DNA of 64,000 bases, from the NCBI GenBank assembly GCA_965222615.1, contig CBDCUI010000007.1:1-64000 (forward strand). The letters run 5' to 3'. This DNA comes from Gammaproteobacteria bacterium (lineage in GTDB: Bacteria > Pseudomonadota > Gammaproteobacteria > UBA4575). The notes under the pieces were generated by a model. It was not told the DNA's origin. It worked only from the letters and a program-made list of their open reading frames with translations, and did no database searches. Made by a program: the position numbers and the translations under genes. Below, piece by piece: positions 8,441 to 57,070 of the stretch. How positions within the stretch are numbered: the first letter of the stretch is position 1; each line of letters begins with the position of its first letter.

Positions 8441-9521
8441 TGTATGTGTTATCTAATTCGTTGATAGATTTTGTAGCATGGAAGCGGGAGTTTTGCCATC
8501 AATACCTTGATGGGCTCTCGCTTCATTGTAATAAATTAAGTAGGCACTCAGTTCATCTGCAAAGTGTTTTTCTGAGGTAAAGTAAGTACCATCAATCAAA
8601 TCTTCGTTCAAGGTTCTCCAAAAGCGTTCCACTTTGCCATTGGTTTGTGGACGATAAGGTCTTGTATAGCGATGTTTGATGCCCATCTCTAGTAACATGC
8701 GCTCAAAGGCATGTTTGGGTTTTTGTTTCGACTCTTTGACTCCGAACTCCGGTCCATTATCTGTCAGGACTTCTGCAAACTGAATCCCATATTGACTCGA
8801 TAAATAGTTGAAACAACGCAGCGTAGCAAACATCACCGTTAGACTTTGAATATCCTCGACCACTTGCGCCCAGGCAATACGACTGTAGGCATCCACCACA
8901 CACACTAAATAGCGACGCTTGGATTCATTGGCAATCATATCCTTACTCAAGTGATGACAGTCTATATGGGCGAGCTCGCCTGCCTTTTCTCGAATAATGC
9001 GGCGTTTTTCTTCTTGCATAGCAGGCCTTAATCGGTTCACTCCATGACGTTTGAAGATCTGATAGATACATGATGGCGAGGGCGTATTCTGACCTAATTT
9101 CGCTTGTAAGATAAGATGAATCTCATAGCGATTATTGCCTTGCGCACGCGCTTTGAGGACTTGCGCTTCGATCTGCGGACAAGTGCGTCGAGTACGCCAT
9201 TTCGGCCCACGTTTGGCGGGTAATAAAGAAACCACATTACCACTTTGACGATAGCGTGCGTAGTATTTTAAAAACGTTTGAGGACAAGTACCGTGGGCCG
9301 CATAGAAGTCTTTGACCCGGCGATACTGCGGGTGCTGCTTGGCTTTAACTTGTTCGTATTCAGCTATTAGATATTGATATTTCTGAATGTAGTTCTTCTT
9401 TAACGTGCTATCTCGACTGTTGATTCGCATGATGGCTTCTCCTCCTGTTCCGAGTTGCTTAGACACTTATCTAAGATTATCGGATGAGTGATTTTCATCA
9501 ACGATTTACGTAACCTATACA
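8441..9521 (-). mobile_element. Complete IS481-family insertion sequence (1081 bp)
   Basis: TGT...ACA ends; imperfect TIRs match 20/25 (tgtatgtgttatctaattcgttgat vs tgtataggttacgtaaatcgttgat); 5-bp direct repeat GCAAT at 8436-8440 and 9522-9526. Confidence 0.92.
8453..9430 (-). CDS. IS481-family DDE transposase (rve integrase core)
   Basis: HIDCH, VVDAYSR, TDNGPEF, RPYRPQTNGKVERF, YYNEARAHQG; ATG 9430 follows an AGGAGGAG RBS. Confidence 0.93.
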   Translation of the reverse strand: MRINSRDSTLKKNYIQKYQYLIAEYEQVKAKQHPQYRRVKDFYAAHGTCPQTFLKYYARYRQSGNVVSLLPAKRGPKWRTRRTCPQIEAQVLKARAQGNNRYEIHLILQAKLGQNTPSPSCIYQIFKRHGVNRLRPAMQEEKRRIIREKAGELAHIDCHHLSKDMIANESKRRYLVCVVDAYSRIAWAQVVEDIQSLTVMFATLRCFNYLSSQYGIQFAEVLTDNGPEFGVKESKQKPKHAFERMLLEMGIKHRYTRPYRPQTNGKVERFWRTLNEDLIDGTYFTSEKHFADELSAYLIYYNEARAHQGIDGKTPASMLQNLSTN

Positions 9522-41001: not shown

Positions 41002-41373
41002 ATGAGAATTAGTAAAGCCTTAGTCTATGTATTAATGCTGTCTTTTACATTTATGCAAACCGCACCCGCCATTGCGGGGATCGTAGGCACAGACAGATTT
41101 TTATCCGAACAATCCATTCAACAAGATCGTGAAAATCTTCGTTCTTTGATGACACGGGATGAAGTGCGTTCACTATTACAACAAAACGGTCTTACTGTTG
41201 AACAAGCGCAGCAACGTGTTGATTCGTTAACCGATTCAGAAGTGCGACAACTGGCTCAGAAATTTGAAGAACTACCTGCAGCTGGCGATGCGGCAGTGGT
41301 TATTTTAGTTATTGCTTTAGTCGTAATAATTCTAGAGCTGGCAGGAATCACAGATATCTTTACTGGTATTTAA
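41002..41373 (+). CDS. PA2779-family protein (signal peptide, helical domain, hydrophobic C-tail)
   Basis: A-GIVGT, RVDSLTDSEV, LPAAG followed by a hydrophobic tail ending GITDIF; AGGAG RBS. Confidence 0.85.
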   Translation: MRISKALVYVLMLSFTFMQTAPAIAGIVGTDRFLSEQSIQQDRENLRSLMTRDEVRSLLQQNGLTVEQAQQRVDSLTDSEVRQLAQKFEELPAAGDAAVVILVIALVVIILELAGITDIFTGI

Positions 41374-41374
41374 A

Positions 41375-41758
41375 GTGTCTTGTAAATTAATGCTGGGAAA
41401 ACATTTATTACTGTGTTTACTATCGGTTTCGCTTGCCTTTTTACAGATATCCCCTGCTTACGCGGGCATTGTCGGCACTGAAAAATCATTTGCCGAATAT
41501 TCAGCGCAACATGATCGTCAAGTTTTACGCGACCTTATGGCACGCGATGAGGCACGTGAATTACTAGCCACTAATGGCTTAACTGTCGAACAAGCTCAAC
41601 AAAGAGTAAATGCATTAACGGACAGTGAAGCACGTCAACTTGCAGAAAAATTCGATGAACAGCCAGCTGGTGGAATTTTGGTAGCCTTGCTGATTATTTT
41701 CCTCGTATTTATAATTCTAGAAATGGCAGGAGTAACCGACGTATTTACTGGAATTTGA
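41375..41758 (+). CDS. PA2779-family protein, second paralog
   Basis: A-GIVGT, RVNALTDSE, QPAGG then ILVALLIIFLVFIILEMAGVTDVF. Confidence 0.85.
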   Translation: MSCKLMLGKHLLLCLLSVSLAFLQISPAYAGIVGTEKSFAEYSAQHDRQVLRDLMARDEARELLATNGLTVEQAQQRVNALTDSEARQLAEKFDEQPAGGILVALLIIFLVFIILEMAGVTDVFTGI

Positions 41759-42768
41759 TTTTAACTAAGAAACTTACTTGTTTAGCAAATGCCCGCACTT
41801 GTGCGGGCATTTTTTTCTTTTGGCTTATACTTTTTGCCTGTGCAACCCCGCAAACCAAGCAATTAATGCTACAAAAACCACAAGATCTACCTGATCAAGC
41901 ATTAATTTCCGAGGTTCCTTTTTACCCACAAGAACAATTTCATTGTGGACCCGCCACTTTAGCGATGGCAATGAATTTTTATGGCGACACCTTATCTGCT
42001 GAAGAAATTGCTAAAGACGTGTTTACTCCTAACTTGAAAGGCAGCCTTCAAGTTGAAATGAAAGCAGCAGTTCGCAAACGCGGTATGTTGGCTTATGAAC
42101 TAACACCAGAACTAGTGTATCTGCTCGCCGAAGTATCTGTAGGACATCCAGTTATAGTTTTGCAGAATCTGTCTATAAAATGGTATCCAATTTGGCATTA
42201 CGCTCTTGTAATTGGCTACAATTTAAAGCGAAATACTTTAATTTTACACACCGGGAAAAATTCTAACTATGAAGTTGCGATAGGTACATTCGAACTGACC
42301 TGGCAACGAGCAAACAATTGGGCATTAGTCATACTACCCAGTGATACTTTACCTAACGATCGCAATCTTATAAATGTATTACAAGCCGCTGTTGATCTGG
42401 AAGAAGTGGGACAAATTGAACATGCGAATCGTGCCTATCAAGCAATAATTAAACGATGGCCAGAAAGTTTCGTCGCCTTAATGGGTGTAGCGAATACCCA
42501 CCTACTCTTAAAACAACCAGAACAAGCAACGAAAAGTTACCTACGTGCAGCGGAGCTGAAACCTAATGAATCCGATATCTACAATAACCTTGCTTACAGT
42601 CTACTTGCGCAATCCTGTTACAACGCGGCACTCAACTCAGTGCGCTGTGCCATTGCTCTACAGCCGAGCAATCTCGAATACCAAAGTTCACTCAAAGAGA
42701 TCACCGCTTTCGATGACAAGAATGATGAAAAAAATTGCCCCATCTTCAAATGTTCAAAACAAAAGTAA
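41755..42768 (+). CDS. PA2778-family C39-like cysteine peptidase lipoprotein with TPR domain
   Basis: Lipobox LFAC; VPFYPQ...CGPATLA, KGSLQ, VLQNL, WHYALVIGY; C-terminal TPR (YNNLA). Confidence 0.88.
   Translation: MILTKKLTCLANARTCAGIFFFWLILFACATPQTKQLMLQKPQDLPDQALISEVPFYPQEQFHCGPATLAMAMNFYGDTLSAEEIAKDVFTPNLKGSLQVEMKAAVRKRGMLAYELTPELVYLLAEVSVGHPVIVLQNLSIKWYPIWHYALVIGYNLKRNTLILHTGKNSNYEVAIGTFELTWQRANNWALVILPSDTLPNDRNLINVLQAAVDLEEVGQIEHANRAYQAIIKRWPESFVALMGVANTHLLLKQPEQATKSYLRAAELKPNESDIYNNLAYSLLAQSCYNAALNSVRCAIALQPSNLEYQSSLKEITAFDDKNDEKNCPIFKCSKQK
41787..41816 (+). terminator. Intrinsic terminator-like hairpin after the PA2779 genes
   Basis: aaatgcccgcac-tt-gtgcgggcattt followed by a T run. 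Confidence 0.75.
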
Positions 42769-42815: not shown

Positions 42816-44522
42816 TTGGTAATAAGCAGTTATGGTGTAGACGTGGCTAAGCAAACAAGAAAATTCTCATCTATGGTTGTCGATGGTATCGAACGAGCAC
42901 CTAGTCGAGCCATGTTGCGTGCGGTTGGCTTTAAAGACGATGACTTCAGCAAACCCCAAATTGGCATCGCATCAACCTGGAGCATGGTCACGCCATGCAA
43001 TATGCATATTGATACACTAGCCGATGAAGCCGCACTAGGTGTAAATCAAGCAGGCGGTAAAGCGGTAGTCTTTAATACCATCACCATTTCCGATGGTATC
43101 TCGATGGGTACCGAAGGTATGAAATACTCATTGGTTTCACGTGAGGTAATTGCCGATTCGATAGAAACCGTTGTCGGCTGCGAAGGTTTTGACGGCATTG
43201 TTGCCATTGGTGGATGCGATAAAAATATGCCTGGCTGTTTGATTGCCCTAGCAAGGCTGAATCGACCCGCGGTGTTTGTATATGGCGGTACCATCCTGCC
43301 GGGAAGCTATAAAAATAAAAAAGTCGATGTCATCTCCGTATTTGAAGCCGTTGGTCAACACGCGCAACAGTTGTTATCAGACGATGATTTAAAACGAGTG
43401 GAATCTACTGCCATACCCGGTCCTGGCTCTTGTGGTGGTATGTATACTGCGAATACGATGGCATCTGCAATTGAAGCACTGGGGATGAGTTTGCCAAATA
43501 GTTCGGCCCAAAATGCAATTTCAAAAGATAAAAAACAAGATTGCCTAGCTGCAGGACAAGCAGTGATAAAACTAATCGAAAAAGATATATGCCCTAAAGA
43601 CATCATGACGAAAAAGGCGTTCCAAAATGCTATTACAGTCGTGACGGCCTTAGGTGGATCTACTAATGCGGTTTTACACTTACTCGCCATGGCACATGCC
43701 ATCGGAATAAAACTTAATATAGATGAATTTACTCGAATAGGAAAAAAAGTACCGGTGCTGGCTGATTTACGCCCAAGTGGCAAATATATGATGTCAGAAC
43801 TGATCGAAATCGGTGGCATACAACCCTTGATGCGTATGTTATTGGATAGAGGTTTATTACATGGCGATTGTCTAACCGTTACTGGTAAATCATTAAAACA
43901 AAATTTGCGTGGGATTAAGCACTATCCGAAAACACAAAATATCGTTCACGATTTCAATGACCCAATTAAAAAAGATGGACACTTAGTTGTGTTATATGGA
44001 AACCTCGCCCCTGAAGGAGCAGTGGCCAAAATCTCTGGCAAAGAAGGTTTGCGTTTTACTGGTAAAGCACGTGTGTTTGCATCGGAAGAAAAAGCTTTAG
44101 AAAAAATTTTGGATGGCGGAATAAAAAAAGGCGATGTCATCGTCATTCGTTATGAAGGACCGAAAGGGGGACCAGGCATGCGCGAAATGTTATCGCCTAC
44201 CTCGGCCATTATGGGTAAAGGTTTAGGTAAAGATGTAGCATTAATCACGGATGGTCGCTTTTCGGGTGGCAGCCATGGATTTGTGGTAGGACATATCACC
44301 CCTGAGGCGGCAATTGGAGGACCCTTAGGTTTAATAAAAAATGGTGATCAAATAACCATCGATGCCGAAAAACGTGAGATTAACGTTAAGCTCACTAAAC
44401 AAGAACTCAAGCAACGCAAAAAGAAGTGGCGTCCACCAAAACCACGTTATAAGCATGGTGTTTTGGCAAAGTATGCACAACAAGTATCCTCAGCTTCTTT
44501 GGGCGCAGTAACTGACTTATAA
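42816..44522 (+). CDS. ilvD: Dihydroxy-acid dehydratase; start likely GTG 42843
   Basis: TPCNMH, SDGISMG, GGCDKNMPG, CGGMYTANTM, GGSTN, GPGMREM, TDGRFSG. Confidence 0.97.
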   Translation: MVISSYGVDVAKQTRKFSSMVVDGIERAPSRAMLRAVGFKDDDFSKPQIGIASTWSMVTPCNMHIDTLADEAALGVNQAGGKAVVFNTITISDGISMGTEGMKYSLVSREVIADSIETVVGCEGFDGIVAIGGCDKNMPGCLIALARLNRPAVFVYGGTILPGSYKNKKVDVISVFEAVGQHAQQLLSDDDLKRVESTAIPGPGSCGGMYTANTMASAIEALGMSLPNSSAQNAISKDKKQDCLAAGQAVIKLIEKDICPKDIMTKKAFQNAITVVTALGGSTNAVLHLLAMAHAIGIKLNIDEFTRIGKKVPVLADLRPSGKYMMSELIEIGGIQPLMRMLLDRGLLHGDCLTVTGKSLKQNLRGIKHYPKTQNIVHDFNDPIKKDGHLVVLYGNLAPEGAVAKISGKEGLRFTGKARVFASEEKALEKILDGGIKKGDVIVIRYEGPKGGPGMREMLSPTSAIMGKGLGKDVALITDGRFSGGSHGFVVGHITPEAAIGGPLGLIKNGDQITIDAEKREINVKLTKQELKQRKKKWRPPKPRYKHGVLAKYAQQVSSASLGAVTDL

Positions 44523-44644
44523 ATAAACTATTAAAAGCATAAATTGTCGGCCTATCCTAAATAGTTTAGGATGGCCTCGCTTGATAATTACTACTTAAGT
44601 ATTACCACTAAAAACAACGAAAAATTTCCCTGAAGGAGTTGTCG

Positions 44645-45283
44645 ATGGCGACATTACTATCCCCTGAAGAACTAGAAGCCATAATGGAACGTAAAAACAA
44701 GATGCGTCGTGAGGCCTATGACCGTCGTAATGCACAAGAAGATAAAGATGAGCTCAGTGCACGTGCTTGCGAGAAGTTTATGGCACTACCTGAATATCAA
44801 AATGCCAACGTAGCAATGTGGTATATCGATTGCAGATCCGAAACACGTACTAAACCCCACCTATTAGAAGAAGTCGCTAAAGGCGAGAAAAAAATTATCG
44901 TTCCTTATTGCACCGAAGACGAAAATGGTGAAAACAAGCTAGGTCTTTGGTGGATGGAAAGCTTAGAGGAAATGGTAGTAGGTAAATGGAATATTCTGGA
45001 GCCGCCAAAAGAACTGTGGGGCAACCCTGAAAAAGAGGTCGAGGCCGAAGAGCTCGACATCATCATGGTTCCTGGTGTCGGCTTTGATCGAAAAGGCGGA
45101 CGTATGGGCAACGGACAGGGTTACTATGATCGTTTACTTGAAAAGGCACGACCGGATTGTCCTTTAATAGCATTATGCTATGAATCACAGTTGTTTGATG
45201 AGATTCTAGTCGCACCACATGATGTCTACATGGATAAAGTTATCACTGAAGATGCAGTCTATGATGGCATAGGCCGAGGATAA
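44645..45283 (+). CDS. 5-formyltetrahydrofolate cyclo-ligase family protein
   Basis: N-terminal K..MR, SE, ILEP, VPGVGFDRKGGRMGNGQGYYDRLL, HDVYMD. Confidence 0.92.
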   Translation: MATLLSPEELEAIMERKNKMRREAYDRRNAQEDKDELSARACEKFMALPEYQNANVAMWYIDCRSETRTKPHLLEEVAKGEKKIIVPYCTEDENGENKLGLWWMESLEEMVVGKWNILEPPKELWGNPEKEVEAEELDIIMVPGVGFDRKGGRMGNGQGYYDRLLEKARPDCPLIALCYESQLFDEILVAPHDVYMDKVITEDAVYDGIGRG

Positions 45284-45289
45284 TCGCTT

Positions 45290-46213
45290 ATGGCTGCAAA
45301 AATTGATGACACTTATGCAGAGGCGTTTAAAAGTTTATATACAGAATTTTTAATCACTGCACGCGATCGCAAATGGCTAGACCATGCTGTGAACGCAGCA
45401 ACTGGGAATGCCTCAAGTTCAATTTTATGTGACTGCGAAGCAGGCATGGATCGTTATGTAGGCCCTGGTGGAGATGAGAGTTTTACAACACCAGATGGTC
45501 GCCCTGGTGCAATTGTGCAGTTACATGTTCCTCGTTTTCGTAAAGATCGCGTAGAAGCCCTAGAACGTTCGGCATTAGTTCGTATTAGTCAAAATGTATT
45601 AACCTGCCCAACTGCTTCTTGCTTTAATTTGATCGATTCAGAAGAGTATTATCACATGGGCCGTAAAGTAGCTTACTTTGGCAACGGCTATCAAAAACGC
45701 ATTGAACGCTTTGGTCGCAAGATGTGGTGGATTCCGATTCTTGGTGGTGAATTTATTTTAGATCGTCGCTTGGGTTACGCAGACGGCCTCATGGGTGGCA
45801 ATTTATGGTTCTTTGGTGACAGTGTCGATTCCGCATTATTGGCTGCAGAAAAAGGGGTGGAAGCGATACTACCAATGCCGGGGGTCATAACCACCTTTCC
45901 AGGTGGCATTGCGGGCAGTGGTTCCAAGGCCGGCAGTAATTACGACTTCACGATTGCCAGCACTTACGAAAAATTTTGTCCTTTACTGCAAGATGATCCA
46001 ACGGTAGAAGCAGGACTGCCTGAAGGTGTTAACTGTGTAATGGAGATCATTATGAATGGTCAAGGTATGCAACCTATTGTCGATGCCACCCAAGCAGCAA
46101 TCAAAGCTTCTGTAGACACTCCGGGCTTAATTATGATCTCTGCGGGTAATTATGGTGGGCGTTTGGGGAAATCCTTTATCTACCTAGATCCCTCCAAACA
46201 ACCTACAGCTTAA
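45290..46213 (+). CDS. fhcD: Formylmethanofuran-tetrahydromethanopterin N-formyltransferase (Ftr/FhcD), stand-alone
   Basis: IDDTYAEAF, CDCEAG, TPDGRPG, QNVLTCPT, GGN, FPGG...GSK, ISAGNYGGRLG. Confidence 0.92.
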   Translation: MAAKIDDTYAEAFKSLYTEFLITARDRKWLDHAVNAATGNASSSILCDCEAGMDRYVGPGGDESFTTPDGRPGAIVQLHVPRFRKDRVEALERSALVRISQNVLTCPTASCFNLIDSEEYYHMGRKVAYFGNGYQKRIERFGRKMWWIPILGGEFILDRRLGYADGLMGGNLWFFGDSVDSALLAAEKGVEAILPMPGVITTFPGGIAGSGSKAGSNYDFTIASTYEKFCPLLQDDPTVEAGLPEGVNCVMEIIMNGQGMQPIVDATQAAIKASVDTPGLIMISAGNYGGRLGKSFIYLDPSKQPTA

Positions 46214-46362
46214 GAAGCTCTGAGTTTATTCTTCTACTTCGTTAAAAAAGTATTTCGAAATGCTCATGTACTTAGTATGTACACTGCGCTTTCGAAATAT
46301 TTTTTGCCTCGTATAAGACGCTCATGTTATTGAGTAACATGAGCTAATAAATCAGAACTCCC
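46211..46362. repeat. Palindromic MITE/RPE-like element, copy 2
   Basis: Ends gaagctctgagtttatt / aataaatcagaactcc; core ctcatgtac...tgtacactgcgc; collinear with the 48771 element in reverse orientation. Confidence 0.78.
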
Positions 46363-46373
46363 TTTAATTTGTT

Positions 46374-47252
46374 ATGACTTCGGAATTTGAAAAAACATCT
46401 GGTGGGGCCATCTTGATGGATGGAAAAGCTGTCGCTGAAGTACTGCAAACTAGAGTAGCCAACAAATTAGCACAGTCTCCCAACTCCAAAGTAACTCTTG
46501 CAACAGTATTAATTGGTAACGACCCTGCTAGTAATCTTTATGTAGAAATGAAGCAACGTCGTGCAACTGCGGTCGGTATACAGTCTAAGCATATACAACT
46601 ATCTAGCGATGTATCCATGCCTCAAGCATCTGAAGAAGTCTTAACACTGGTTGAAAATCCCCATGTACATGGAATTCTGATTCAGTTACCACTTCCTCCT
46701 CAACTCGATACTCACAAGATTATTGATTTGCTCCCAGCTGAAAAAGATGTGGATGGCTTAAGTAACAACAATCTTGGCAAGTTATTACGTGGAGAACCTG
46801 GACTAGTACCCTGTACACCCTTAGGGGTAATGTGTTTATTGGAGCACTATAATATTCCTACTGCTGGCCAACGAGCGGTGGTAATTGGCCGCTCCACATT
46901 AGTAGGACTACCACAAGTATTATTATTGGCACGCAAAGGAATCGATGCGACCGTTACGCTAGCGCATTCACGCAGTGGTGATTTAGTGGAAATTACAAAA
47001 TCAGCAGACATCATTATTGCTGCAGCTGGCATGGCTCGTTTAGTTACCAAGAAACATGTCAAGCCTGGCGCCACCGTAATTGATGTTGGGGTAACACGTA
47101 CCGATGACGGTATTCAAGGTGATGTAGATTTTGATCAAGTACAATCCACTGCAGGCGCCATCACTCCCATGCCGGGCGGTACAGGACCGATGACCGTAGC
47201 ATGTTTATTGGAAAACACATTGCATGCAGCCAAGTTGCAAAATGCGCTCTAA
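46374..47252 (+). CDS. folD: Bifunctional methylene-THF dehydrogenase/methenyl-THF cyclohydrolase
   Basis: MDGK, YVEMK, GILIQLPLP, KDVDG, PCTP, VIGRS, IDVG, TPMPGGTGPMT. Confidence 0.95.
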   Translation: MTSEFEKTSGGAILMDGKAVAEVLQTRVANKLAQSPNSKVTLATVLIGNDPASNLYVEMKQRRATAVGIQSKHIQLSSDVSMPQASEEVLTLVENPHVHGILIQLPLPPQLDTHKIIDLLPAEKDVDGLSNNNLGKLLRGEPGLVPCTPLGVMCLLEHYNIPTAGQRAVVIGRSTLVGLPQVLLLARKGIDATVTLAHSRSGDLVEITKSADIIIAAAGMARLVTKKHVKPGATVIDVGVTRTDDGIQGDVDFDQVQSTAGAITPMPGGTGPMTVACLLENTLHAAKLQNAL

Positions 47253-47483
47253 GATAAGTGCATTAACCCGGTTAAGTGCGATTTATTACCCTATAATATC
47301 CATCACGTAATATGCAAATTGCTTGAGCCGACTATAGGGCTTATGGCAAGATGCTGAACTTTTCGCGCAACTGTGTTGCTTGCGAATGTGGCAGCTCCGG
47401 CCGCTGATATAAAAACTGTGATAATAATCGGGGCTCATTCACTTTTTTAATTTTTAATAAAATTCAATAAAAGGGTTCACGTT

Positions 47484-48752
47484 ATGCCTGGAGAAAAATT
47501 ATCATTCCCTGGAAGAAATTATTTATTCGCGCCTGGTCCTACTCATATTCCTCAGGCAGTTCAAAACGCTATGATCTGCCCACAAGAAGATCACCGTGCT
47601 CCTGATTTTCCACAACTCGTTAAACCCTTACTCAAAGACGTTAAAAAAATATTTAAAACCACAAAAGGAACATGTTTTTTGTTCCCCGCAACGGGAACCG
47701 CTGGTTGGGAGGTTGCCTTAGCAAATACCATGTCTCCTGGCGACAAAATTCTGACTACACGTTTTGGACAATTTAGTCATTTATGGTACGACCTGTCTTG
47801 CCGCATCGGTTTAGATGTACAACTTGTGGAGACACCATGGGGCGAAGGTGTACCCATCGACAAATTTAAAAAGATTTTACAAGCCGACAAAAAACATCAA
47901 ATTAAAGCAGTAGTCGTTTGTCATAATGAAACGGCCACGGGTGTAACTAGCGATATCGCTGCATTAGGTAAAATGCTGAAACAAATTAAGCACCCTGCAC
48001 TACTCATGGTTGATGGCGTAAGCTCTATCGCTAGTATCGATTTTCGTATGGATCAGTGGGGAGTCGATGTGGCAGTGAGTGGTTCTCAAAAAGGATTCAT
48101 GCTTCCTGCGGGCATGGCCATACTTGCATTTAGCCCTCGCGCAATGAATGCTCGCAAAAAAGCGAAATGCGCGCGTTGTTTTCTCGATATTCAAGATCAT
48201 ATTAATGCCAATAAAGATGGCTACTTTCCTTACACACCTTCTGTACCCATGTTACGTGGACTGCGTGCAGCACTTGATTTGCTGATGGACGAAGGTCTGG
48301 AGAATGTATTTAAACGGCACCATCGCTTGGCCGAAGGTGTGCGTAAAGCAGTCAAGGCATGGGGTATGAAACCTTGTGCCAGAGCGCCTAAATGGTATTC
48401 CGATACGGTTACCGCAATTATGGTTCCATCTAGTGTCAATGCTGCGGAAGTTATCCATATTGCTTACCATCGCTACAATATTTCACTCGGCGCAGGTTTA
48501 TCCAAAGTTGCTGGCAAAGTGTTTCGCATTGGTCACTTAGGTGATAATAACGAAGCACGCATGATGGCAGTATTGGGCTCGGTTGAAATGGCGATGAACG
48601 ATGCCGGCATGAAAATTAAACCTGGTAGTGGAGTAGCAGCGGCAGAAGAATATTATCGTAAGACTGCCAAAAAGATTAAAAAGTTTGGAGCTACTCAAGC
48701 ACCGCGTGAAGCACGTACCGCTACTAAAAAGAAAAGAGCAAAAAGAAAATAA
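47484..48752 (+). CDS. sgaA: Serine-glyoxylate aminotransferase
   Basis: GRNYLFAPGPT, HNETATGV, VDGVSS, GSQKGFMLPAG, FRIGHLG; context of serine-cycle genes. Confidence 0.9.
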   Translation: MPGEKLSFPGRNYLFAPGPTHIPQAVQNAMICPQEDHRAPDFPQLVKPLLKDVKKIFKTTKGTCFLFPATGTAGWEVALANTMSPGDKILTTRFGQFSHLWYDLSCRIGLDVQLVETPWGEGVPIDKFKKILQADKKHQIKAVVVCHNETATGVTSDIAALGKMLKQIKHPALLMVDGVSSIASIDFRMDQWGVDVAVSGSQKGFMLPAGMAILAFSPRAMNARKKAKCARCFLDIQDHINANKDGYFPYTPSVPMLRGLRAALDLLMDEGLENVFKRHHRLAEGVRKAVKAWGMKPCARAPKWYSDTVTAIMVPSSVNAAEVIHIAYHRYNISLGAGLSKVAGKVFRIGHLGDNNEARMMAVLGSVEMAMNDAGMKIKPGSGVAAAEEYYRKTAKKIKKFGATQAPREARTATKKKRAKRK

Positions 48753-48770
48753 ATTGAATAACTAAAACAC

Positions 48771-48990
48771 GGGAGGCTATGATTTATTAGCCATGTAAAC
48801 ATGGCGACTTAGACGAGGCAAAAAATGTTGAGACAAATCTGCTGGGAGCAGATTTGGGAAGCTCTGCTAGCCGCAGGCCGAGTACCAGGAAGGTACGAGT
48901 CAAAGCGGAGTTTACACGCTAGTTTGCGGCTTTGCCGCCCCGCATTTTGAAACATTTTTTAACGAAGTATAAGAATAAATCAGAGCTTCC
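48771..48990. repeat. Palindromic MITE/RPE-like element, copy 3 (with inserted hairpin modules)
   Basis: ggaggctatgatttattagc...acgaggcaaaaaat...gcggagtttaca...ttttttaacgaagt...aataaatcagagcttcc. Confidence 0.78.
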
Positions 48991-49023
48991 ATATAACATT
49001 CACTAAAATTTAGGTAGAAGCTT

Positions 49024-49965
49024 ATGAGTTTTACTCAATACAAACCCGCACAACTCCGCGTACAACGTTGCGAATTGGCTGTTCCCGGATCGAATCCTAA
49101 AATGATGGAAAAAGCAGTCACATGTGCTGCGGATTATGTTTTTCTAGATTTGGAAGACGCCGTCGCACCGGACGATAAAGTCCAAGCACGAAAAAATGTA
49201 ATTGCTGCGCTAAAAGAACATGACTGGAAAGGTAACGGCAAAACTGTATCCGTGCGTATCAATGGATTAGATACCCATTATATGTACCGCGATGTGGTAG
49301 ACGTGGTCGAACAAGCCGGCGATAAACTAGATACCATCTTGATTCCAAAAGTAGGTACAACCGGGGATGTGTATATGGTAGATGCCATGGTGACCCAGAT
49401 TGAAGAAGCCATGGGACTCAACAATAAAATTGGCTTGGAGGCGTTGATTGAAACGGCATTAGGCATGGCTAATGTGGAAGCCATTGCCACTTCAAGTCCA
49501 CGTATGGAGGCCATGCATTTTGGTGTGGCGGATTATGCTGCAAGTAATCGTGCCCGTACGGTGAATATCGGTGGTCTAAATCCCGATTACCCAGGCGATC
49601 AATGGCATGCGGCGATTTCGCGCATGACTGTGGCTTGCCGTGCCTATGGATTACGCCCTATTGATGGCCCGTTTGGCGATTTCAATGACCCTGATGGTTA
49701 TTTACTAGCCGCTCGACGTGCTGCCGCCCTTGGCTGTGAAGGTAAATGGGCCATTCACCCAAAACAAATCGAACTGGCTAACGAGGTATTCTCACCTCCT
49801 GAAGCAGAAGTAACCAAGGCAAAAAGAATCCTTGAGGAGCTAGAAAAGGCAGCCAAAGAAGGTAAAGGTGCTGCCTCTTTAGATGGAAAAATGATCGATG
49901 CGGCTTCGGCCCGAATGGCTGAAAATGTGGTTCGAGCTGCCGATGCGATTGCCGCAAAATCTTAA
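49024..49965 (+). CDS. mcl: Malyl-CoA lyase (HpcH/HpaI-CitE family)
   Basis: ELAVPGS, FLDLEDAV, VRINGLDTHYMYRD, IETALG, HFGVADYAAS, DGPFGD, GKWAIHP. Confidence 0.92.
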   Translation: MSFTQYKPAQLRVQRCELAVPGSNPKMMEKAVTCAADYVFLDLEDAVAPDDKVQARKNVIAALKEHDWKGNGKTVSVRINGLDTHYMYRDVVDVVEQAGDKLDTILIPKVGTTGDVYMVDAMVTQIEEAMGLNNKIGLEALIETALGMANVEAIATSSPRMEAMHFGVADYAASNRARTVNIGGLNPDYPGDQWHAAISRMTVACRAYGLRPIDGPFGDFNDPDGYLLAARRAAALGCEGKWAIHPKQIELANEVFSPPEAEVTKAKRILEELEKAAKEGKGAASLDGKMIDAASARMAENVVRAADAIAAKS

Positions 49966-50147
49966 GTTATAGCGCTAATGCTGAGCTAGAACAGATAACG
50001 CAGTTAATATTGCTTATTTTTTAAGCAATTATCCAACAAGAGGGTTTGTCGAGAGGCGACCGAATAGGCTATAAAAGGCCCTCGGTCCGACACATAAACT
50101 TCGACCGACGCTGATAAGAATAAATCATTTTCTCGGGAGGGAATTAA

Positions 50148-51323
50148 GTGGATATCCATGAGTATCAAGCGAAAGAGCTATTGTCTGAATTTGGAGTGGG
50201 CATTGCGCCAGGGGGGCTAGCTTACAGCCCTGAACAAGCCGTTTACCGTGCTAAAGAAATTGGTGGCAATAAATGGGCAGTGAAGGCCCAAATTCATTCT
50301 GGTGCACGCGGCAAAGCCGGCGGTATTAAACTTTGCACCAATGATGAAGAAATTTGGCAAGCTGCAGATGAACTACTGGGCAAACGTCTGGTCACTCATC
50401 AGACCGGCCCTACAGGAAAAGTGGTTTATCGTCTATACGTTGAACAAGCAACCGATATAGAGAATGAAATTTATTTAGCACTTGTCCTTGACCGTAATAA
50501 ACAACGGGTTGTGATTGTTACATCTTCTGAAGGTGGCATGGATATTGAAGAAGTTGCCGCAACCAAGCCTGATTCCATTCACCGGCTAGAAGTTGAGCCA
50601 GCAGTGGGCTTACGCGATTTTCAAGCACGCGAACTCGCTTTCGCGCTTGGTATTAAACCTGAATTAATTAGCCAAGCCGTGCATTGTATTAAAGGTGCGT
50701 ATCGCGCATTTCGTGATTTAGACGCCACCATGGTTGAGATTAATCCTTTAGTCATTACTAAAGACAATCATGTCTTAGCTTTAGATGCAAAAATGGGTTT
50801 TGATGATAATGCCTTATTCCGTCGCCCTAATATCTCTGAATTACGTGATAAATCTCAAGAAGATCCGCGCGAAACGGCTGCATCCGATCGTGGCTTAAGT
50901 TACGTGGGCTTGGATGGCGACATCGGCTGCATGATTAATGGTGCCGGCTTGGCGATGGCTACCATGGATATGATCAAACACAAAGGTGGTGAGCCCGCAA
51001 ACTTTTTAGATATTGGTGGTGGTGCATCTCCAGATCGAGTTACCAAGGCATTTAAATTAGTGCTCGATGATGAAAACGTTAAAGCCATGCTAGTAAATAT
51101 CTTCGCAGGTATTAATCGTTGTGATTGGATTGCTGAAGGCGTAATACAAGCCTTCGGTAAACTAGATGTGAAGGTTCCGGTGGTAGTGCGCCTTTCTGGA
51201 ACCAATGTCGAAAAAGGCATGCAAATGCTAAAAGACAGTGGTTACCCCATTATTACGGCTGATACGTTAGCAGAAGCGGCAGAAAAAGTAGTCGGTGAAC
51301 GTAACCGCGTTGTCGGCTCATAA
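50148..51323 (+). CDS. mtkA: Malate-CoA ligase beta subunit
   Basis: [53 protein letters not shown]; follows mcl. Confidence 0.9.
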
Positions 51324-51396
51324 AGTTTAGAAGAACTGTCGCAGATAAAGTAAAAGTAAGAAAATTGCGCGCGTAAATTTCTAGGAGAATTCACAC

Positions 51397-52287
51397 ATGA
51401 CAATAATGATTGATGAAAATACTAAAGTTTTAGTACAAGGTTTTACAGGGAAAATCGGAACCTTCCATGCCGAAGAAATGCTTGAGTATGGTACTAAAGT
51501 TGTTGGTGGGGTAACGCCAGGCAAGGGTGGACAAACGCATATGGATTTACCTGTATTCAATACTATGAAAGAGGCCGTTGCGGAAACCGGAGCGGATGCC
51601 AGTATTGTATTTGTACCTGCGGCATTTGCTGCAGATGGTGTTATGGAAGCTGCGGATGCGGGAATTAAGACCTGTGTATGCATCACTGATGGTATCCCTG
51701 CACAAGACATGATGCGTGTGAAACGTTATATGTTCCGTTATAAAAGAGAAGATCGTATGCGCCTTACCGGACCCAACTGCGCCGGATCAATTAGTCCAGG
51801 AAAATGTTTACTCGGAATCATGCCCGGTCATATTTATATGCAAGGAAATGTGGGTGTCGTTGCCCGCTCCGGGACACTCGGTTATGAAGGGGCTTCGCAG
51901 ATGAAAGCCGCAGGAATTGGTATCACTACCAGCATTGGTATTGGTGGCGACCCGATTAATGGCTCGTCACATCGCGACATACTGGAGTTATTTGAAGCCG
52001 ATCCTGAAACTAAAGCCGTTTTAATGATTGGTGAAATCGGCGGCCCTCAAGAAGCGGAAGCTGCTGAATACTTTAAGCATCACATGAGCAAACCGTTAGT
52101 TGCTTACATTGCTGGCCTCACAGCACCGAAAGGTCGCCGTATGGGGCATGCGGGTGCAATTGTTTCTGGTAAAGGTGAAAGTGCAGCAGAAAAAGTGGAA
52201 ATGTTAAAAGAGGCCGGCGTGACCGTTGCCCCTAATCCATCTGAATTAGGCTCAACCATGGAACGAGTAATGAAAGAAGTTGCTTAG
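51397..52287 (+). CDS. mtkB: Malate-CoA ligase alpha subunit
   Basis: VQGFTG, GVTPGKGG, GPNC, RSGTL, IGEIGG, RRMGHAGAI. Confidence 0.88.
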   Translation: MTIMIDENTKVLVQGFTGKIGTFHAEEMLEYGTKVVGGVTPGKGGQTHMDLPVFNTMKEAVAETGADASIVFVPAAFAADGVMEAADAGIKTCVCITDGIPAQDMMRVKRYMFRYKREDRMRLTGPNCAGSISPGKCLLGIMPGHIYMQGNVGVVARSGTLGYEGASQMKAAGIGITTSIGIGGDPINGSSHRDILELFEADPETKAVLMIGEIGGPQEAEAAEYFKHHMSKPLVAYIAGLTAPKGRRMGHAGAIVSGKGESAAEKVEMLKEAGVTVAPNPSELGSTMERVMKEVA

Positions 52288-52316
52288 GCGATAATTAGAT
52301 CTAGGAGATAACAAAA

Positions 52317-53288
52317 ATGAGCAAGCTAAAAGTCATCGTCTCACGAGCCTGGCCTAAGGAGGTTGAAGCAACATTAAAAGAAAAGTATGACGTGCAACTT
52401 AATGAAAATGACGTTGCTATGACTAAAGATGAAATGAAAAATGCTTTAGGAAATTGTGATGCTTTTCTACCGACTGTAACTGATCCAGTGGATGCAGAAG
52501 TATTAAGTGCGGAACCCTTACGTGCAAAATTTATCGGTAATTTTGGAGTTGGTTTTAACCACATCGATTTAGATGCTGCGAAAGCACGAGGTCTTACTGT
52601 TACCAACACACCAGAAGTACTAACTGACTGCACTGCAGATATTGCAATGACCTTATTGCTAACTGCTGCACGCCGTACTAGCGAAGGTGAACGTCATTTA
52701 CGTTCAAATTCATGGACGGGTTGGCGACCTACCCATATGTTAGCAACTAAAGTCACCGGTAAGACATTAGGACTTATTGGAATGGGGCGTATTGCTCAGG
52801 CCATGGCGCAACGCGCGCATTTTGGATTTGGAATGAAAATAATTTTTTCGGATCCATACCCTCCTCCCGCCGAAGTAATTAAAAAGTTTAATGCGCAACA
52901 ATGTGATTCCATTGATGAAGTACTGGCTAACTCAGATTTTGTTTCCATTCATTGCCCTGGCGGCAAGGACACCTACCACTTATTAAGTGAAGAAAATCTT
53001 GCCAAAATGAAATCTACTGCTTTTTTAATAAATTCAGCTCGCGGCGATGTCGTTGACAACGAGGCCTTAATTGACGCACTTAAGAACGGGGTAATCGCCG
53101 GTGCAGGTTTAGATGTATTTGAAGGTGAGCCAAACTTGGATGAACGCTTTATTGAGCTTGAAAATGCTGTGTTACTGCCGCATCTTGGAAGTGCCTCAAC
53201 TGAAACTCGTGTGGCCATGGGAAATCGAGTGTTGGAGAACCTAGCAGCATTTGAAGCAGGCGAAACCCCAAGAGACAAACTCGTTTAA
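52317..53288 (+). CDS. hprA: D-glycerate dehydrogenase / hydroxypyruvate reductase
   Basis: GVGFNHID, TNTP, GLIGMGRI, INSARG, GLDVFE, LPHLGSA; role inferred from cluster. Confidence 0.8.
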   Translation: MSKLKVIVSRAWPKEVEATLKEKYDVQLNENDVAMTKDEMKNALGNCDAFLPTVTDPVDAEVLSAEPLRAKFIGNFGVGFNHIDLDAAKARGLTVTNTPEVLTDCTADIAMTLLLTAARRTSEGERHLRSNSWTGWRPTHMLATKVTGKTLGLIGMGRIAQAMAQRAHFGFGMKIIFSDPYPPPAEVIKKFNAQQCDSIDEVLANSDFVSIHCPGGKDTYHLLSEENLAKMKSTAFLINSARGDVVDNEALIDALKNGVIAGAGLDVFEGEPNLDERFIELENAVLLPHLGSASTETRVAMGNRVLENLAAFEAGETPRDKLV

Positions 53289-53417
53289 GCCCAGAAATGG
53301 GCTAAATATGCTCGTTTCGGGCATTCCAAAACTGCCTTACTCCCCCTATGATGGAAGGGGTCCAGTTATGGGCTCCTTCACACTACTCGACTAAAATTTA
53401 ATTAGACTATCGATAAT

Positions 53418-56192
53418 ATGAATGACTCTTCTCCACTTTCTTGGACACAACTGACTAGAGTTGCTACGGGTCGCACAATCATCGATCCGTCTGCTAGTTA
53501 TGAAGACGGCCTCGTAGAGCTTCTTTATCAGCAATTTTTAAGTGTTATCCGCACTCGTCAACCGGATATCGAGGCGTACTTGGAAGATGAGAAAGATATT
53601 CGTGACGTTACTGAATCACAAGCTTTATATGTACTTGAAGCTTATGGAATCTGGTATCAGCTTCTTAGCATTGCCGAACAAAACGCAATGGTGCAGCAAC
53701 GACGCCAAATTGAAAAAGAATACAGTCGCGATCGTGTACCAGGTACATTTGCTTATACTTTTTCTACGGCGGCACAACGTGGCACTCAAGCACAAGAAAT
53801 TCAAAAAATTCTGAACTATAGCTTCATTTGTCCAGTAATCACTGCACATCCAACCGAAGCCAAGCGTGTAACCGTTTTAGAAATTCACCGCCGCATTTAT
53901 GTTTTACTCAAACAACTAGAGCTTGAGCGTTGGACACCACGAGAACGTGACGACTTAGCACATGAATTGCGTAACGAAATCGACCTGCTTTGGTTAACCG
54001 GTGAAATCCGTCTGGAAAAACCCACGGTTGCACAAGAAGTAGCCTGGGGATTACATTTCTTTACCGAATCACTATTTGATGGCGTAATGCAACTCTATGC
54101 GAGATTTGACCGAGCCTTAGAACAAGCTTATCCACATTTCGACTTTGAAGTACCACCACTATTTCGCTTTGGCACATGGATTGGTGGTGACCGTGACGGG
54201 AACCCAAACGTCACAGCCAAAGTTACTGCCTCTGCTATCCATGCTAACGCGAAGGCTTGCATAAAACGCTATCGGCAAAATATTTATGAGCTTGGTGCAA
54301 AATTAAGCATTGCCAGTCACTCAGTTACTATTCCTGAAAATTTTATGCAGGCATTGCAAAAGAAATTAGAATTCCATAGCAAAGCAGAAACATTTTCAAA
54401 ACGTAATCCAGGAGAAGTGTTTCGCCAGTACTTACGGTGCATATTATTAAGTATTGATGCTACATTAAATAATCTAGATAACCCTAACAAATCCACTATT
54501 GCTTATAAGCGCGCAGCAGACCTAGTAGCAGACCTGAAAACACTTGAGCAAGGTTTAGTTGAAGCCAAATGTGAACACTTAGCAGCAAAGGATGTACGTC
54601 CTTTACGTCACATGGTGGATACCTTTGGTTTTCGTACAGCAAGCTTAGATCTACGTGAAAATACTACCGTTACAAATAGTGTACTTGCAGAAATTTGGCA
54701 AGTATTACATCAAAAAACTCACTTAGATCTTCCAGACTTTAAGTCCAACGAATGGAAAGAATGGATTTTACGCGAGCTAATGCAACCACTACGGGTAGTG
54801 CCACGAATTGACTATTTATCAGAACAAGCCCAATCCACATTAGCGATGCTTGAACAAGTTAAACATTATCAACGCAAGTTAGATCCAAAAACCTTCGGTG
54901 TTATTGTATTAAGCATGACCCAGACTTCGGCAGATGTGCTCGGTGTCTATTTGTTAGCAAAATATGTAGGTCTATTCACAGATGCAGATGGATTAGAAGC
55001 GTGTCGAATTTTAGTGGTGCCCTTATTAGAAACGATTGAAGATCTGGAGAATGGACCTAATATCTTGCAAGAATTACTAGATCACGCTTTTGTTCGACGT
55101 ACGATTCGAAAACATGGTGGCTGCCAGGAAATTATGGTCGGCTATTCTGATTCAAATAAAGACGGTGGGTTTCTTACTTCAAATTGGATCATTAGCAAAG
55201 CGCAATCTCAAATTCATGAAGCTGGCAAAAAATTAAATACACCTGTTTCTTTTTTCCATGGCCGTGGCGGTTCTGTTAGTCGTGGTGGTGCACCCAGCGG
55301 TCGTGCAATTGCTGCCCAACCTGTAGGTACCATCGATGGGCGTATGCGGGTCACAGAACAAGGTGAAGTGGTTTCTTATAAATACGCTAACCGTGGCTTT
55401 GCCGAAGAGCAAATGGAAATCATTGCCGCAAGCGTTTTGACTCATACACTGATGTCAGGGAATGATCCTGCTTATCAAGTGAATGCGGAATTAGATGAAG
55501 CAATGGAAGCGCTCTCTGGTACTGCCTATGTTACCTATAGAAAATTTATCGAATCTCCAGGCTTAGTCGAGTTCTATCAGCAAGCTAGTCCGGTAGAAGA
55601 ATTAGCGTTAATGAAAATTGGCTCCCGCCCGGCACGTAGATTTGGCGCAGCAACATTAGAAGATTTGCGAGCAATACCTTGGGTATTTGCATGGACACAG
55701 AATCGCATTTTAGTACCAGGTTGGTATGGTGTTGGCAGCAGCTTTGAACAGCTTATTAGTATACGTGGGGAATTTGGTAAAGATCTTTTACAACAGTTAT
55801 ATGAAAAACATTCACTGTTTAAATTAATTTTAGACGGTGTCGAAAAAACACTTTTGCTTGTTGATATGGAAGTTGCAGAAAAATACTCAGCGCTCGTTAC
55901 TAACACAGATTTTAGAGAAAACATTTTCTCTAGCATAAAAAATGAATACGAACTAACGACAAAAATGGTTTTGCAAATAACTGGAGAAGATCAGCTATGC
56001 GATCGATTTCCTAACTTTAAGCGACACTTTTACAGACGAAGTGATTCGTTAAACCAAGTAGGCATTGAGCAAGTTGAACTAATAAAAAAGTTTCGTGACG
56101 ATGAACCAAATGAAAAAAATATACAAGACGTATTGATTCCTCTGCTTTTATCCATCAACTGTGTAGCGGCAGGAATTGGAAGCACAGGTTAA
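53418..56192 (+). CDS. ppc: Phosphoenolpyruvate carboxylase
   Basis: TAHPTE, WIGGDRDGNP, MVGYSDSNKDGG, FHGRGGSVSRGG, LRAIPW. Confidence 0.96.
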   Translation: MNDSSPLSWTQLTRVATGRTIIDPSASYEDGLVELLYQQFLSVIRTRQPDIEAYLEDEKDIRDVTESQALYVLEAYGIWYQLLSIAEQNAMVQQRRQIEKEYSRDRVPGTFAYTFSTAAQRGTQAQEIQKILNYSFICPVITAHPTEAKRVTVLEIHRRIYVLLKQLELERWTPRERDDLAHELRNEIDLLWLTGEIRLEKPTVAQEVAWGLHFFTESLFDGVMQLYARFDRALEQAYPHFDFEVPPLFRFGTWIGGDRDGNPNVTAKVTASAIHANAKACIKRYRQNIYELGAKLSIASHSVTIPENFMQALQKKLEFHSKAETFSKRNPGEVFRQYLRCILLSIDATLNNLDNPNKSTIAYKRAADLVADLKTLEQGLVEAKCEHLAAKDVRPLRHMVDTFGFRTASLDLRENTTVTNSVLAEIWQVLHQKTHLDLPDFKSNEWKEWILRELMQPLRVVPRIDYLSEQAQSTLAMLEQVKHYQRKLDPKTFGVIVLSMTQTSADVLGVYLLAKYVGLFTDADGLEACRILVVPLLETIEDLENGPNILQELLDHAFVRRTIRKHGGCQEIMVGYSDSNKDGGFLTSNWIISKAQSQIHEAGKKLNTPVSFFHGRGGSVSRGGAPSGRAIAAQPVGTIDGRMRVTEQGEVVSYKYANRGFAEEQMEIIAASVLTHTLMSGNDPAYQVNAELDEAMEALSGTAYVTYRKFIESPGLVEFYQQASPVEELALMKIGSRPARRFGAATLEDLRAIPWVFAWTQNRILVPGWYGVGSSFEQLISIRGEFGKDLLQQLYEKHSLFKLILDGVEKTLLLVDMEVAEKYSALVTNTDFRENIFSSIKNEYELTTKMVLQITGEDQLCDRFPNFKRHFYRRSDSLNQVGIEQVELIKKFRDDEPNEKNIQDVLIPLLLSINCVAAGIGSTG

Positions 56193-56212: not shown

Positions 56213-57070
56213 ATGAAAAAACTTTTATACCATTTTGATACGGATCCAATCCCAAGTGTATTTGACTCCGTGGTAGCTTACGATGGTGGCGCAGATCACG
56301 TCACTCAACTTAGTGGTGTAAATGCAGAAAATTGCAGCGGCTTAGTTGAAGGAGCAATTTATACACGCGCACCTAAAGACAAGAAAAACACTGCTATTTT
56401 CATCGGCGGCAGTGATTTAATCGCAGGACAAAACCTTTTTAAAGTAGTGCAAAGTCAGTTTTTTCAAAAATTCAGTGTATCGGTAATGCTAGATAGTAAT
56501 GGTTGTAATACCACTGCAGCTGCTGGTGTAGCACTGTTAAATAATGCATCATCATTAGCAGGAAAAATTGCCGTGGTCCTTGCTGGAACCGGACCCGTTG
56601 GTCAACGAGCAGCTGTTTTGCTTGCTAAAAGTGGCGCTGAAGTACGCTTGACTTCACGAAAACAATCTCGGTCCGTTGAGGCATGTGACGAAATGAAAGA
56701 TAGATTTGGAGTTGACATGATTCCAATGCATGCAAGCGATACAGACTCAACAAACCAAGCACTGGATGGGGCTCATGTTGTATTTGCTGCCGCTAAAGCA
56801 GGCATTCAGTTACTTAATGCAGAACAATGGCAAAAGCACTCATCGCTTGAACTCATGGCAGATGTTGGCACCGCACAAACATTAGGCTTTGAAGGCATTG
56901 ATATGATGGACAAGGATACGATTCGACACGGCAAGAGAATATTTGGCGGCATTGGCATTGGTGCCTTAAAACTTAAATTACATCGTGCATGTATTGCTAA
57001 GCTATTTGAATCCAATGACCAGGTTCTCGATGCCGAGACAATTTACAGTATTGCTCAAAAAATGGTGTAG
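56213..57070 (+). CDS. mtdA: NADP-dependent methylene-H4F/H4MPT dehydrogenase
   Basis: KKLLYHFDTDPIPSVFDSVVAYDGGAD, TAIFIGG, DSNGCNTTAAA, GTGPVG, GIGALKLKLH. Confidence 0.9.
   Translation: MKKLLYHFDTDPIPSVFDSVVAYDGGADHVTQLSGVNAENCSGLVEGAIYTRAPKDKKNTAIFIGGSDLIAGQNLFKVVQSQFFQKFSVSVMLDSNGCNTTAAAGVALLNNASSLAGKIAVVLAGTGPVGQRAAVLLAKSGAEVRLTSRKQSRSVEACDEMKDRFGVDMIPMHASDTDSTNQALDGAHVVFAAAKAGIQLLNAEQWQKHSSLELMADVGTAQTLGFEGIDMMDKDTIRHGKRIFGGIGIGALKLKLHRACIAKLFESNDQVLDAETIYSIAQKMV

Follow-up and report, generated by a model that had tools for sequence, protein, structure and literature searches.

Why should a gene for a 5-formyltetrahydrofolate cyclo-ligase and a gene for a stand-alone formyltransferase stand side by side at the head of a serine-cycle cluster? 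The question is raised by a 64,000-nucleotide stretch of DNA (the window) from a gammaproteobacterium of the GTDB lineage UBA4575 (assembly GCA_965222615.1, contig CBDCUI010000007.1, positions 1 to 64,000). Here a cyclo-ligase gene, termed FCL, is followed by Ftr3, a divergent paralog of formylmethanofuran:tetrahydromethanopterin formyltransferase (Ftr), and by folD. In the textbook picture of a serine-cycle methylotroph, free formate is the only form in which carbon crosses from the tetrahydromethanopterin (H4MPT) branch to folate, and FtfL is needed for growth on one-carbon (C1) compounds. The formate route of Methylorubrum extorquens runs through Fhc, free formate, FtfL, Fch and MtdA. We tentatively propose that FCL and Ftr3 form one functional unit, which may serve as a bridge that carries formyl groups from the methanofuran/H4MPT side into folate. 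This interpretation, put forward in an earlier note made from the window alone, is partly supported by the present analysis, in which the checks possible at the level of sequence all favour the bridge.

FCL (44645-45283, 212 amino acids), Ftr3 (45290-46213, 307 amino acids) and folD (46374-47252) lie on the plus strand, as does the serine-cycle set that follows them. This order and common strand, as described in the earlier note, are borne out by open reading frame (ORF) calls and family scans, and so is the 6-bp gap between the first two genes, the FCL stop codon ending at 45283 and the Ftr3 ATG lying at 45290. The first ORF is called at 44639-45283; the ATG at 44645, where the note had placed the start, is preceded by a GAAGGAG ribosome-binding site. 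Upstream of FCL lies ilvD (42816-44522). FCL scores 129.8 bits against PF01812 and 130.4 bits against TIGR02727 (MTHFS_bact, cut-off 84.9). Ftr3 matches PF01913 (142.6 bits) and PF02741 (156.7 bits), passes NF002554 (312.9 bits, cut-off 297) and barely clears TIGR03119 (one_C_fhcD, 295.8 bits, cut-off 292.6). FolD, assigned as methylene-tetrahydrofolate dehydrogenase/methenyl-tetrahydrofolate cyclohydrolase, matches PF00763 and PF02882. An Ftr transfers a formyl group between methanofuran and N5 of a tetrahydropterin, and cyclo-ligase is the known consumer of 5-formyltetrahydrofolate (5-formyl-THF), from which it gives methenyl-THF with ATP. The two chemistries thus meet, since both involve an N5-formyl tetrahydropterin.

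The surrounding genome (3.10 Mb, 39% G+C, estimated 99.8% complete) holds three Ftr-family genes, namely the window copy and two within fhcBADC clusters on another contig; a sole copy would have spoken against the idea, and Ftr3 is not one. The two FhcD copies score 415-426 bits against the fhcD model, compared with 295 bits for the window copy. Window scans and whole-genome family searches confirm that fhcA, fhcB, fhcC, mch, ftfL and fch are absent from the window. The wider genome departs from the picture in the earlier note, in that ftfL, mch and the two fhcBADC clusters do exist, on another contig. Of the 31 ORFs of 100 amino acids or more between 38 and 64 kb, 21 were scanned (Pfam and NCBIfam), as were 29 ORFs of at least 150 amino acids between 1 and 38 kb (Pfam); the ten remaining ORFs between 38 and 64 kb are short ones overlapping longer ORFs, or small and unassigned.

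Besides mch and ftfL, the genome carries fae, a pyrroloquinoline quinone (PQQ) methanol-dehydrogenase-family gene and mfnB for methanofuran biosynthesis, and whole-genome family searches for Fch and PurU found neither in it. Its ftfL lies away from the serine-cycle genes, beside a second folD and sarcosine-oxidase-type soxB/soxA, and these genes together resemble an island for folate-dependent demethylation (contig 9, 205305-213443), distinct from the serine-cycle cluster. With mch, fae, the dehydrogenase gene, mfnB and two fhcBADC clusters present, the genome is that of a methylotroph with an ordinary H4MPT branch, to which Ftr3 is an extra.

Ftr3 stands apart from ordinary FhcD. A maximum-likelihood tree was built from 50 rows, comprising 39 of 41 representatives of 270-340 amino acids (the partial matches P0125 and P0133 were left out), the genome's three copies and eight Ftr3-type proteins. 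In this tree Ftr3 and its relatives form their own clade with 100% SH-aLRT support, with a long stem and short inner branches, and the genome's two FhcD copies fall among other bacterial sequences. Ftr3 is approximately 40% identical to these two copies. Among 1.84 billion representatives clustered at 50% identity, a single full-length relative exceeds 50% identity, a cluster at 67% identity in which the members that bear names belong to Planctomycetota; the other full-length matches reach at most 48%. Ftr3 retains the two-lobe architecture of Ftr/FhcD (PF01913 and PF02741) and aligns over its full length with the known structures (PDB 1FTR, 1M5H, 1M5S and 6S6Y chain D; E 1e-66 to 1e-68). Its matches to the archaeal stand-alone Ftr structures reach 226-233 bits, against 170 bits for M. 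extorquens FhcD. Bacterial FhcD is encoded within fhcBADC, whereas Ftr3 is encoded between the cyclo-ligase gene and folD.

The catalytic glutamate of Ftr (Glu245 in Methanopyrus kandleri) corresponds to E252 in Ftr3 and does not vary in either the Ftr3 or the canonical set; this residue stabilises the oxyanion. For FhcD, the catalytic glutamate is given as Glu252 in the structural account of PMC6926001. Comparison of 92 Ftr3-clade rows with 33 canonical rows identified changes that are each at least 95% fixed in the former: a canonical Arg (94%) becomes E19, an Asn (82%) becomes Y226 and a Glu (76%) becomes D158. Three insertions, at 60-62, 81-83 and 240, are fixed in Ftr3 to the same degree. 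Fast divergence as the mere source of this distinctness was considered and ruled out: in each of the 11 relatives compared, Ftr3 has evolved more slowly than the FhcD ortholog (identities of 97% versus 88% and of 91% versus 80%, for example). Being more conserved than that ortholog in every case, Ftr3 is not a decaying copy.

The pairing with FCL is kept far beyond the window's genome, as the survey of neighbourhoods demonstrates. In the window's order (56 species-level genomes, 11 genera), Ftr3 is present in 55 genomes at 84-97% identity, the exception being 87% complete; FCL lies upstream of it in all 30 order-level loci fetched, which carry serine-cycle genes. A scan of species-representative genomes gave 393 Ftr3 relatives. 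Among the best 80 of these, FCL ends within 60 nt of Ftr3 in every one of the 77 loci where 700 nt or more of upstream DNA is available; contig ends cut the remaining three. The distance from FCL stop to Ftr3 start is -1 to +5 nt in 20 diverse loci. Approached from the other side, with an FCL alignment as query against metagenome contigs, Ftr3 adjoins FCL in 73 of the 78 loci that have 300 nt or more downstream: within 100 nt downstream in 67, within 8-138 nt or split by a frameshift in five more, and divergently upstream in one. The pair was also present in all six Ftr3 genomes fetched from a sample of the class, two of which were already among the best 80. Over these 80 loci the median identity of Ftr3 is 87%, among the highest in the cluster (MtkA 88%, FolD 57%), and FCL is likewise one of the best conserved cluster proteins (median identity 84%).

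The pair occurs in a large assemblage of uncultured marine Gammaproteobacteria, including sponge-associated lineages, and in some Planctomycetes. At one planctomycete locus (L113) it is found by itself, and the genes around it, a DUF1559 gene among them, are unrelated. Binning error was considered for the planctomycete loci and set aside, given the DUF1559 gene, the 7.9-Mb size of that genome and the Planctomycetota names borne by the 67%-identical cluster.

In 60 of the 77 loci a folD gene is found no more than 1.2 kb downstream of Ftr3, and the cluster FolD is the only true FolD in most relatives; sga follows Ftr3 in 49 of 62 loci with at least 9 kb downstream. In genus g11 (L028-L035, L037-L039) and in another family (G247 and G526; L211 and L212), sga follows Ftr3 directly. 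The single FolD of g11 is encoded elsewhere, approximately 10 kb from an FhcD-type gene in the two genomes compared. At a further locus (L199, 1682-3609), an FCL-clade gene without an adjacent Ftr3 follows a glycerate-kinase-type gene (DUF4147 and MOFRL); an sga fragment lies upstream, and the setting is still that of the serine cycle.

FCL belongs to the 5-formyltetrahydrofolate cyclo-ligase/MTHFS family (YgfA, YqgN; PDB 1YDM, 1SOU, 2JCB, 3HXT), passing both the PF01812 and TIGR02727 cut-offs, and forms within it a highly conserved subfamily, with 65-93% identity among 21 members from different lineages. A GNGQGYYDR stretch, the GxGxGYYDR-type nucleotide/substrate motif of cyclo-ligases, is invariant in these 21 relatives. 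FCL is the sole cyclo-ligase family member in the window's genome. Family matches occur in 52 of the 56 order genomes, as a single copy in all but one, and the match is the Ftr3-adjacent gene in the rows compared by eye; of the four genomes without a match, three are accounted for by a contig that breaks off at the Ftr3 locus, and the last lacks Ftr3 as well. Because it is the only family member in these folate-using bacteria, FCL is predicted to act on 5-formyl-THF.

All 56 genomes of the window's order have Mch; a family search found Fch in none of them, and FtfL scores above cut-off in seven and is absent from the other 49. One of the FtfL copies is split by a stop codon: in the relative G019 (contig 26, 76529-78237) the ftfL match comes in two parts and includes an in-frame TGA, so that the gene may be decaying. 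Outside the order, 36 further Ftr3 genomes were searched, four of which proved to be duplicates of order genomes (identical contig coordinates), leaving 32. FtfL was found in two of these 32 and FhcA in 35 of the 36. A separate search found Mch in five of five genomes, and PurU was not found in any of the five carrier genomes searched. The serine-cycle marker MtkA scores above cut-off in 27 of the 32, all 27 being among the 29 that are not planctomycetes, and falls just under it in the remaining two of those 29. Four further Ftr3 genomes from the class sample include two with FtfL. Most carriers thus lack FtfL, and all those searched lack Fch. Given the presence of Mch and FhcA, formyl-H4MPT and formyl-methanofuran are made in these cells; since FtfL is rare and Fch and PurU were not found, they would have no annotated way into folate.

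As a control, 400 Gammaproteobacteria of at least 90% completeness were drawn evenly from the class, of which 51 have an Ftr-family gene. FtfL is present in four of the 11 with an Ftr3-type gene, compared with 32 of the 40 with FhcD only, the latter taken whatever their assimilation pathway and not matched for the serine cycle. Leaving out the unpublished genomes (G403 with Ftr3; G181, G259 and G413 without) gives three of 10 against 29 of 37. The complementarity of FtfL and Ftr3 is a tendency, not a statistic, because the relatives are not independent.

One genome resembles a natural knock-out. G060, a single 2.6-Mb contig, has FCL, Ftr3 and FolD back to back with hpr, a beta-RFAP synthase gene for H4MPT biosynthesis, an MtdB-like gene, mch and an MptN-like ligase gene, with mfnB for methanofuran synthesis 6 kb from this island. 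Genome-wide family searches found neither FhcA nor a canonical FhcD in it. Elsewhere on the contig (locus L217, 6793-8133 and 8566-12996), after amt-glnK and before NAD-formate-dehydrogenase-type genes, a 26-codon remnant of an fhcD 3' end directly precedes an fhcC-like GXGXG gene, which suggests that the fhc cluster was lost secondarily. Ftr3 is the only visible outlet for formyl-H4MPT in this organism, and, as formyl-methanofuran has no hydrolase here, the formyl group needs another acceptor. Ftr genes are rare in the order to which G060 belongs (5 of 54 genomes), the island may have been acquired, and the evidence comes from one genome.

These observations can be assembled into a route. Ftr3 would transfer the formyl group of formyl-methanofuran (methylofuran), or effectively of N5-formyl-H4MPT with methanofuran as carrier, to N5 of THF. 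The cyclo-ligase would convert the resulting 5-formyl-THF to 5,10-methenyl-THF at the cost of one ATP, and FolD or MtdA would reduce this with NADPH to methylene-THF, which would enter the serine cycle encoded just downstream via serine hydroxymethyltransferase (SHMT). Such a bridge would replace Fhc hydrolysis to free formate, FtfL and Fch at equal ATP cost, with neither a formate pool nor a cyclohydrolase, and a cyclohydrolase-free route would fit the absence of Fch. N5-formyl pterins are far more stable than 10-formyl-THF, so formyl-methanofuran could plausibly formylate N5, rather than N10, without energy input. It is a real possibility, though one we put forward with reserve, that Ftr3 is a formyl-methanofuran (or, via bound methanofuran, formyl-H4MPT):tetrahydrofolate N5-formyltransferase, a new activity, which with the cyclo-ligase would give an ATP-driven, formate-free bridge. 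The acceptor pterin of Ftr3, the in vivo substrate of FCL and the direction of flux are all predictions from gene content and sequence.

Several observations weigh against this proposal. Ftr3 and FCL pass ordinary family cut-offs, and their sequences, taken alone, would be read as a plain Ftr and a plain MTHFS. As the only cyclo-ligase in each genome, FCL must also recycle ordinary 5-formyl-THF, and such recycling would be needed in any case by a serine-cycle cell in which SHMT flux is high. FtfL is retained in 11 of the 91 distinct published Ftr3 genomes when pooled, the window's own included, and is missing from eight of the 40 FhcD-only genomes. Three planctomycete carriers have no serine-cycle MtkA (their scores are at the level of SucC), so the pair is not tied to the serine cycle. 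In five of the 78 FCL-clade loci Ftr3 was not seen in the DNA available, two of these having 3 kb on both sides. The supply of the donor is a further concern. In M. extorquens, 97% of methylofuran is reported in the protein fraction, as a prosthetic group held on Fhc (PMC6926001). With the cofactor held in this way, little free formyl donor may be left for a stand-alone Ftr3. That G060 has Ftr3 without Fhc points to the possibility that Ftr3 catalyses both half-reactions, from formyl-H4MPT to methanofuran and from methanofuran to THF, which would answer this objection.

The alternative that survives best, although we consider it unlikely, is that the neighbours are two ordinary, co-regulated enzymes: Ftr3 a formyl-methanofuran:H4MPT formyltransferase, and FCL a repair enzyme for 5-formyl-THF arising as a side product of SHMT, sharing an operon without a common intermediate. 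The curated cut-offs passed by both proteins and the catalytic glutamate kept by Ftr3 fit this explanation, and the single-copy FCL, together with a cluster FolD that is the only true one in most relatives, suggests that the cluster gathers housekeeping folate genes anyway. It also counts in favour that SHMT, through which carbon enters the serine cycle, is inhibited by 5-formyl-THF. Yet simple co-regulation does not explain why the two genes stay -1 to +5 nt apart, or why they remain together in L113 with no other C1 gene nearby. It assigns to Ftr3 a function for which these genomes already own one or two FhcD copies, and it passes over the departures of Ftr3 at positions nearly fixed in canonical Ftr/FhcD. 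Further, serine-cycle genomes without FtfL, Fch and PurU would be left with no route from H4MPT to folate, and formyl-methanofuran would be a dead end in G060.

The same shared intermediate could be used in the opposite direction. Ftr3 would then move the formyl group of 5-formyl-THF to methanofuran, from which Fhc would release formate, an ATP-free alternative to the ATP-dependent disposal by FCL. The conserved pairing fits this salvage by the same logic as it fits the bridge, Fhc is present in 35 of the 36 holders searched, and the exchange of a formyl group between methanofuran and an N5-pterin lies close to equilibrium. Nevertheless, we regard salvage as improbable: it leaves the feeding of the serine cycle in FtfL-less genomes unexplained, it is impossible in G060, which has no FhcA, and two highly conserved enzymes seem excessive for one minor by-product.

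Methylene-THF might also come from elsewhere, by spontaneous reaction of formaldehyde with THF or by THF-dependent demethylation of methylated amines, with Ftr3 in some other role. The soxA/soxB genes beside ftfL and the second folD in the window's genome are in keeping with such a supply. We give this explanation very little weight, because it offers no reason for a conserved FCL-Ftr3 unit, and in M. extorquens the spontaneous formaldehyde-THF route is held to be minor in vivo.

Least probable of all is a pair confined to H4MPT, in which Ftr3 makes N5-formyl-H4MPT and the cyclo-ligase uses ATP to form methenyl-H4MPT in an irreversible reductive route from formate-level carbon: a cyclo-ligase homolog is present in methanogens that reportedly lack folate, and Thauer and colleagues raised 5-formyl-H4MPT as its substrate there (PMC3087415), but Mch, found in 56 of 56 and five of five genomes, interconverts the same compounds without ATP, so that an ATP-driven H4MPT cyclo-ligase would run a futile cycle, and FolD, a folate enzyme, comes next in 60 of 77 loci, with FCL the sole family member in these folate-using bacteria.

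The proposed bridge can be placed beside known systems. The formate route of M. extorquens has the same start (formyl-H4MPT/formyl-methylofuran), the same end (methylene-THF) and the same cost of one ATP; it uses free formate, 10-formyl-THF and a cyclohydrolase, whereas the bridge would use none of these. A precedent for folate use within an H4MPT-enzyme family is MtdA, a methylene-pterin dehydrogenase of serine-cycle methylotrophs whose dual specificity for H4MPT and THF was shown by assay, and an MtdA-type gene is present in the same cluster. MtdA belongs to a different family and catalyzes a different reaction from Ftr3, for which the use of folate is predicted from sequence. MTHFS is known as a repair or recycling enzyme, whereas FCL would be main-line and anabolic. 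Braakman and Smith (2012; PMC3334880) include cyclo-ligase as an alternative ATP-coupled entry in reductive folate pathways, as reaction 2A in a numbered reaction list alongside a discussion of Aquificales without formyl-THF synthase; no enzyme making 5-formyl-THF, no Ftr and no methanofuran link is given with that entry. A search of open PMC papers and bioRxiv preprints, with the subscription literature outside its reach, returned no description of an Ftr-cyclo-ligase pair or of formyl transfer from formyl-methanofuran to THF, and excerpts of an opinion piece about how H4MPT/methanofuran genes have spread (PMC5020050) do not mention the pair. All the components belong to known families, and the chemistry proposed goes only a little beyond established reactions; the pair may nonetheless be an undescribed route of C1 units into folate for growth on methanol-like compounds.

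The issue concerns approximately 90 species-level genomes with an H4MPT branch, most of them without FtfL and those searched without Fch or PurU, in which a two-gene unit is conserved. If the bridge exists, it would reveal a new substrate specificity in the Ftr family and an anabolic role for cyclo-ligase. 5-Formyl-THF has so far been regarded as a storage form or side product, and would become a main-line intermediate of carbon assimilation. Predictions of C1 assimilation from marine and sponge-associated metagenomes would change as well, and two small soluble proteins could provide a compact, formate-independent module for the engineering of synthetic methylotrophy.

Downstream of folD, an apparently complete serine-cycle set, judged on sga, hpr, mtkAB, mcl and ppc, extends over 47484-56192 on the plus strand. 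A serine-glyoxylate-type class-V aminotransferase (Sga-like, 47484-48752) matches PF00266, its nearest NCBIfam model being BhcA at 598.5 bits, under the cut-off of 650. It is followed by an HpcH/HpaI aldolase of the malyl-CoA lyase type (49024-49965; PF03328, 141.9 bits) and by the beta and alpha subunits of malate-CoA ligase (mtkA and mtkB, 50148-52287, with ORFs at 50148-51323 and 51397-52287), which score 703.3 bits against NF010647 (cut-off 604) and, for alpha, 437.8 bits against NF004230. Next come a 2-hydroxyacid dehydrogenase of the hydroxypyruvate/glyoxylate reductase type (Hpr-like, 52317-53288; PF02826 and PF00389) and PEP carboxylase (53418-56192; PF00311, 792.7 bits). The MtdA-type NAD(P) methylene-pterin dehydrogenase gene lies at 56213-57070, also on the plus strand (PF09176 Mpt_N, 104.1 bits). 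A promoter and terminator scan of 44400-49100 predicted fewer sites than in shuffled sequence and was not used.

The two fhcBADC clusters lie on contig 9, at 485897-490550 on the plus strand (L006) and at 585074-590068 on the minus strand (L007). One has a weak FhcB (235 bits, cut-off 328) and the other a full-scoring FhcB (513 bits). The latter also matches formate-dehydrogenase alpha models, and for this reason its cluster may encode a true formyl-methanofuran dehydrogenase. Relatives keep one fhc type, the second, with the full-scoring FhcB, in genera g2, g3 and g11, and the first, with the weak FhcB, in g9 and g10. A gene for a YgfZ-type folate-binding protein stands directly upstream of the first cluster (contig 9, 484742-485788; L006, 6743-7789).

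The remainder of the window has a different character. Its first 38 kb carry lipopolysaccharide (LPS)-core, thiC, glnE and transport genes, with no C1 genes in the Pfam scan. Just upstream of ilvD, at 41002-42768, a tandem pair of PA2779-family (DUF6627) genes is followed by a gene for a PA2778-family C39 cysteine peptidase with TPR repeats. Amid housekeeping genes, the minus strand carries a gene for a transposase with an integrase core (rve) at 8453-9466.

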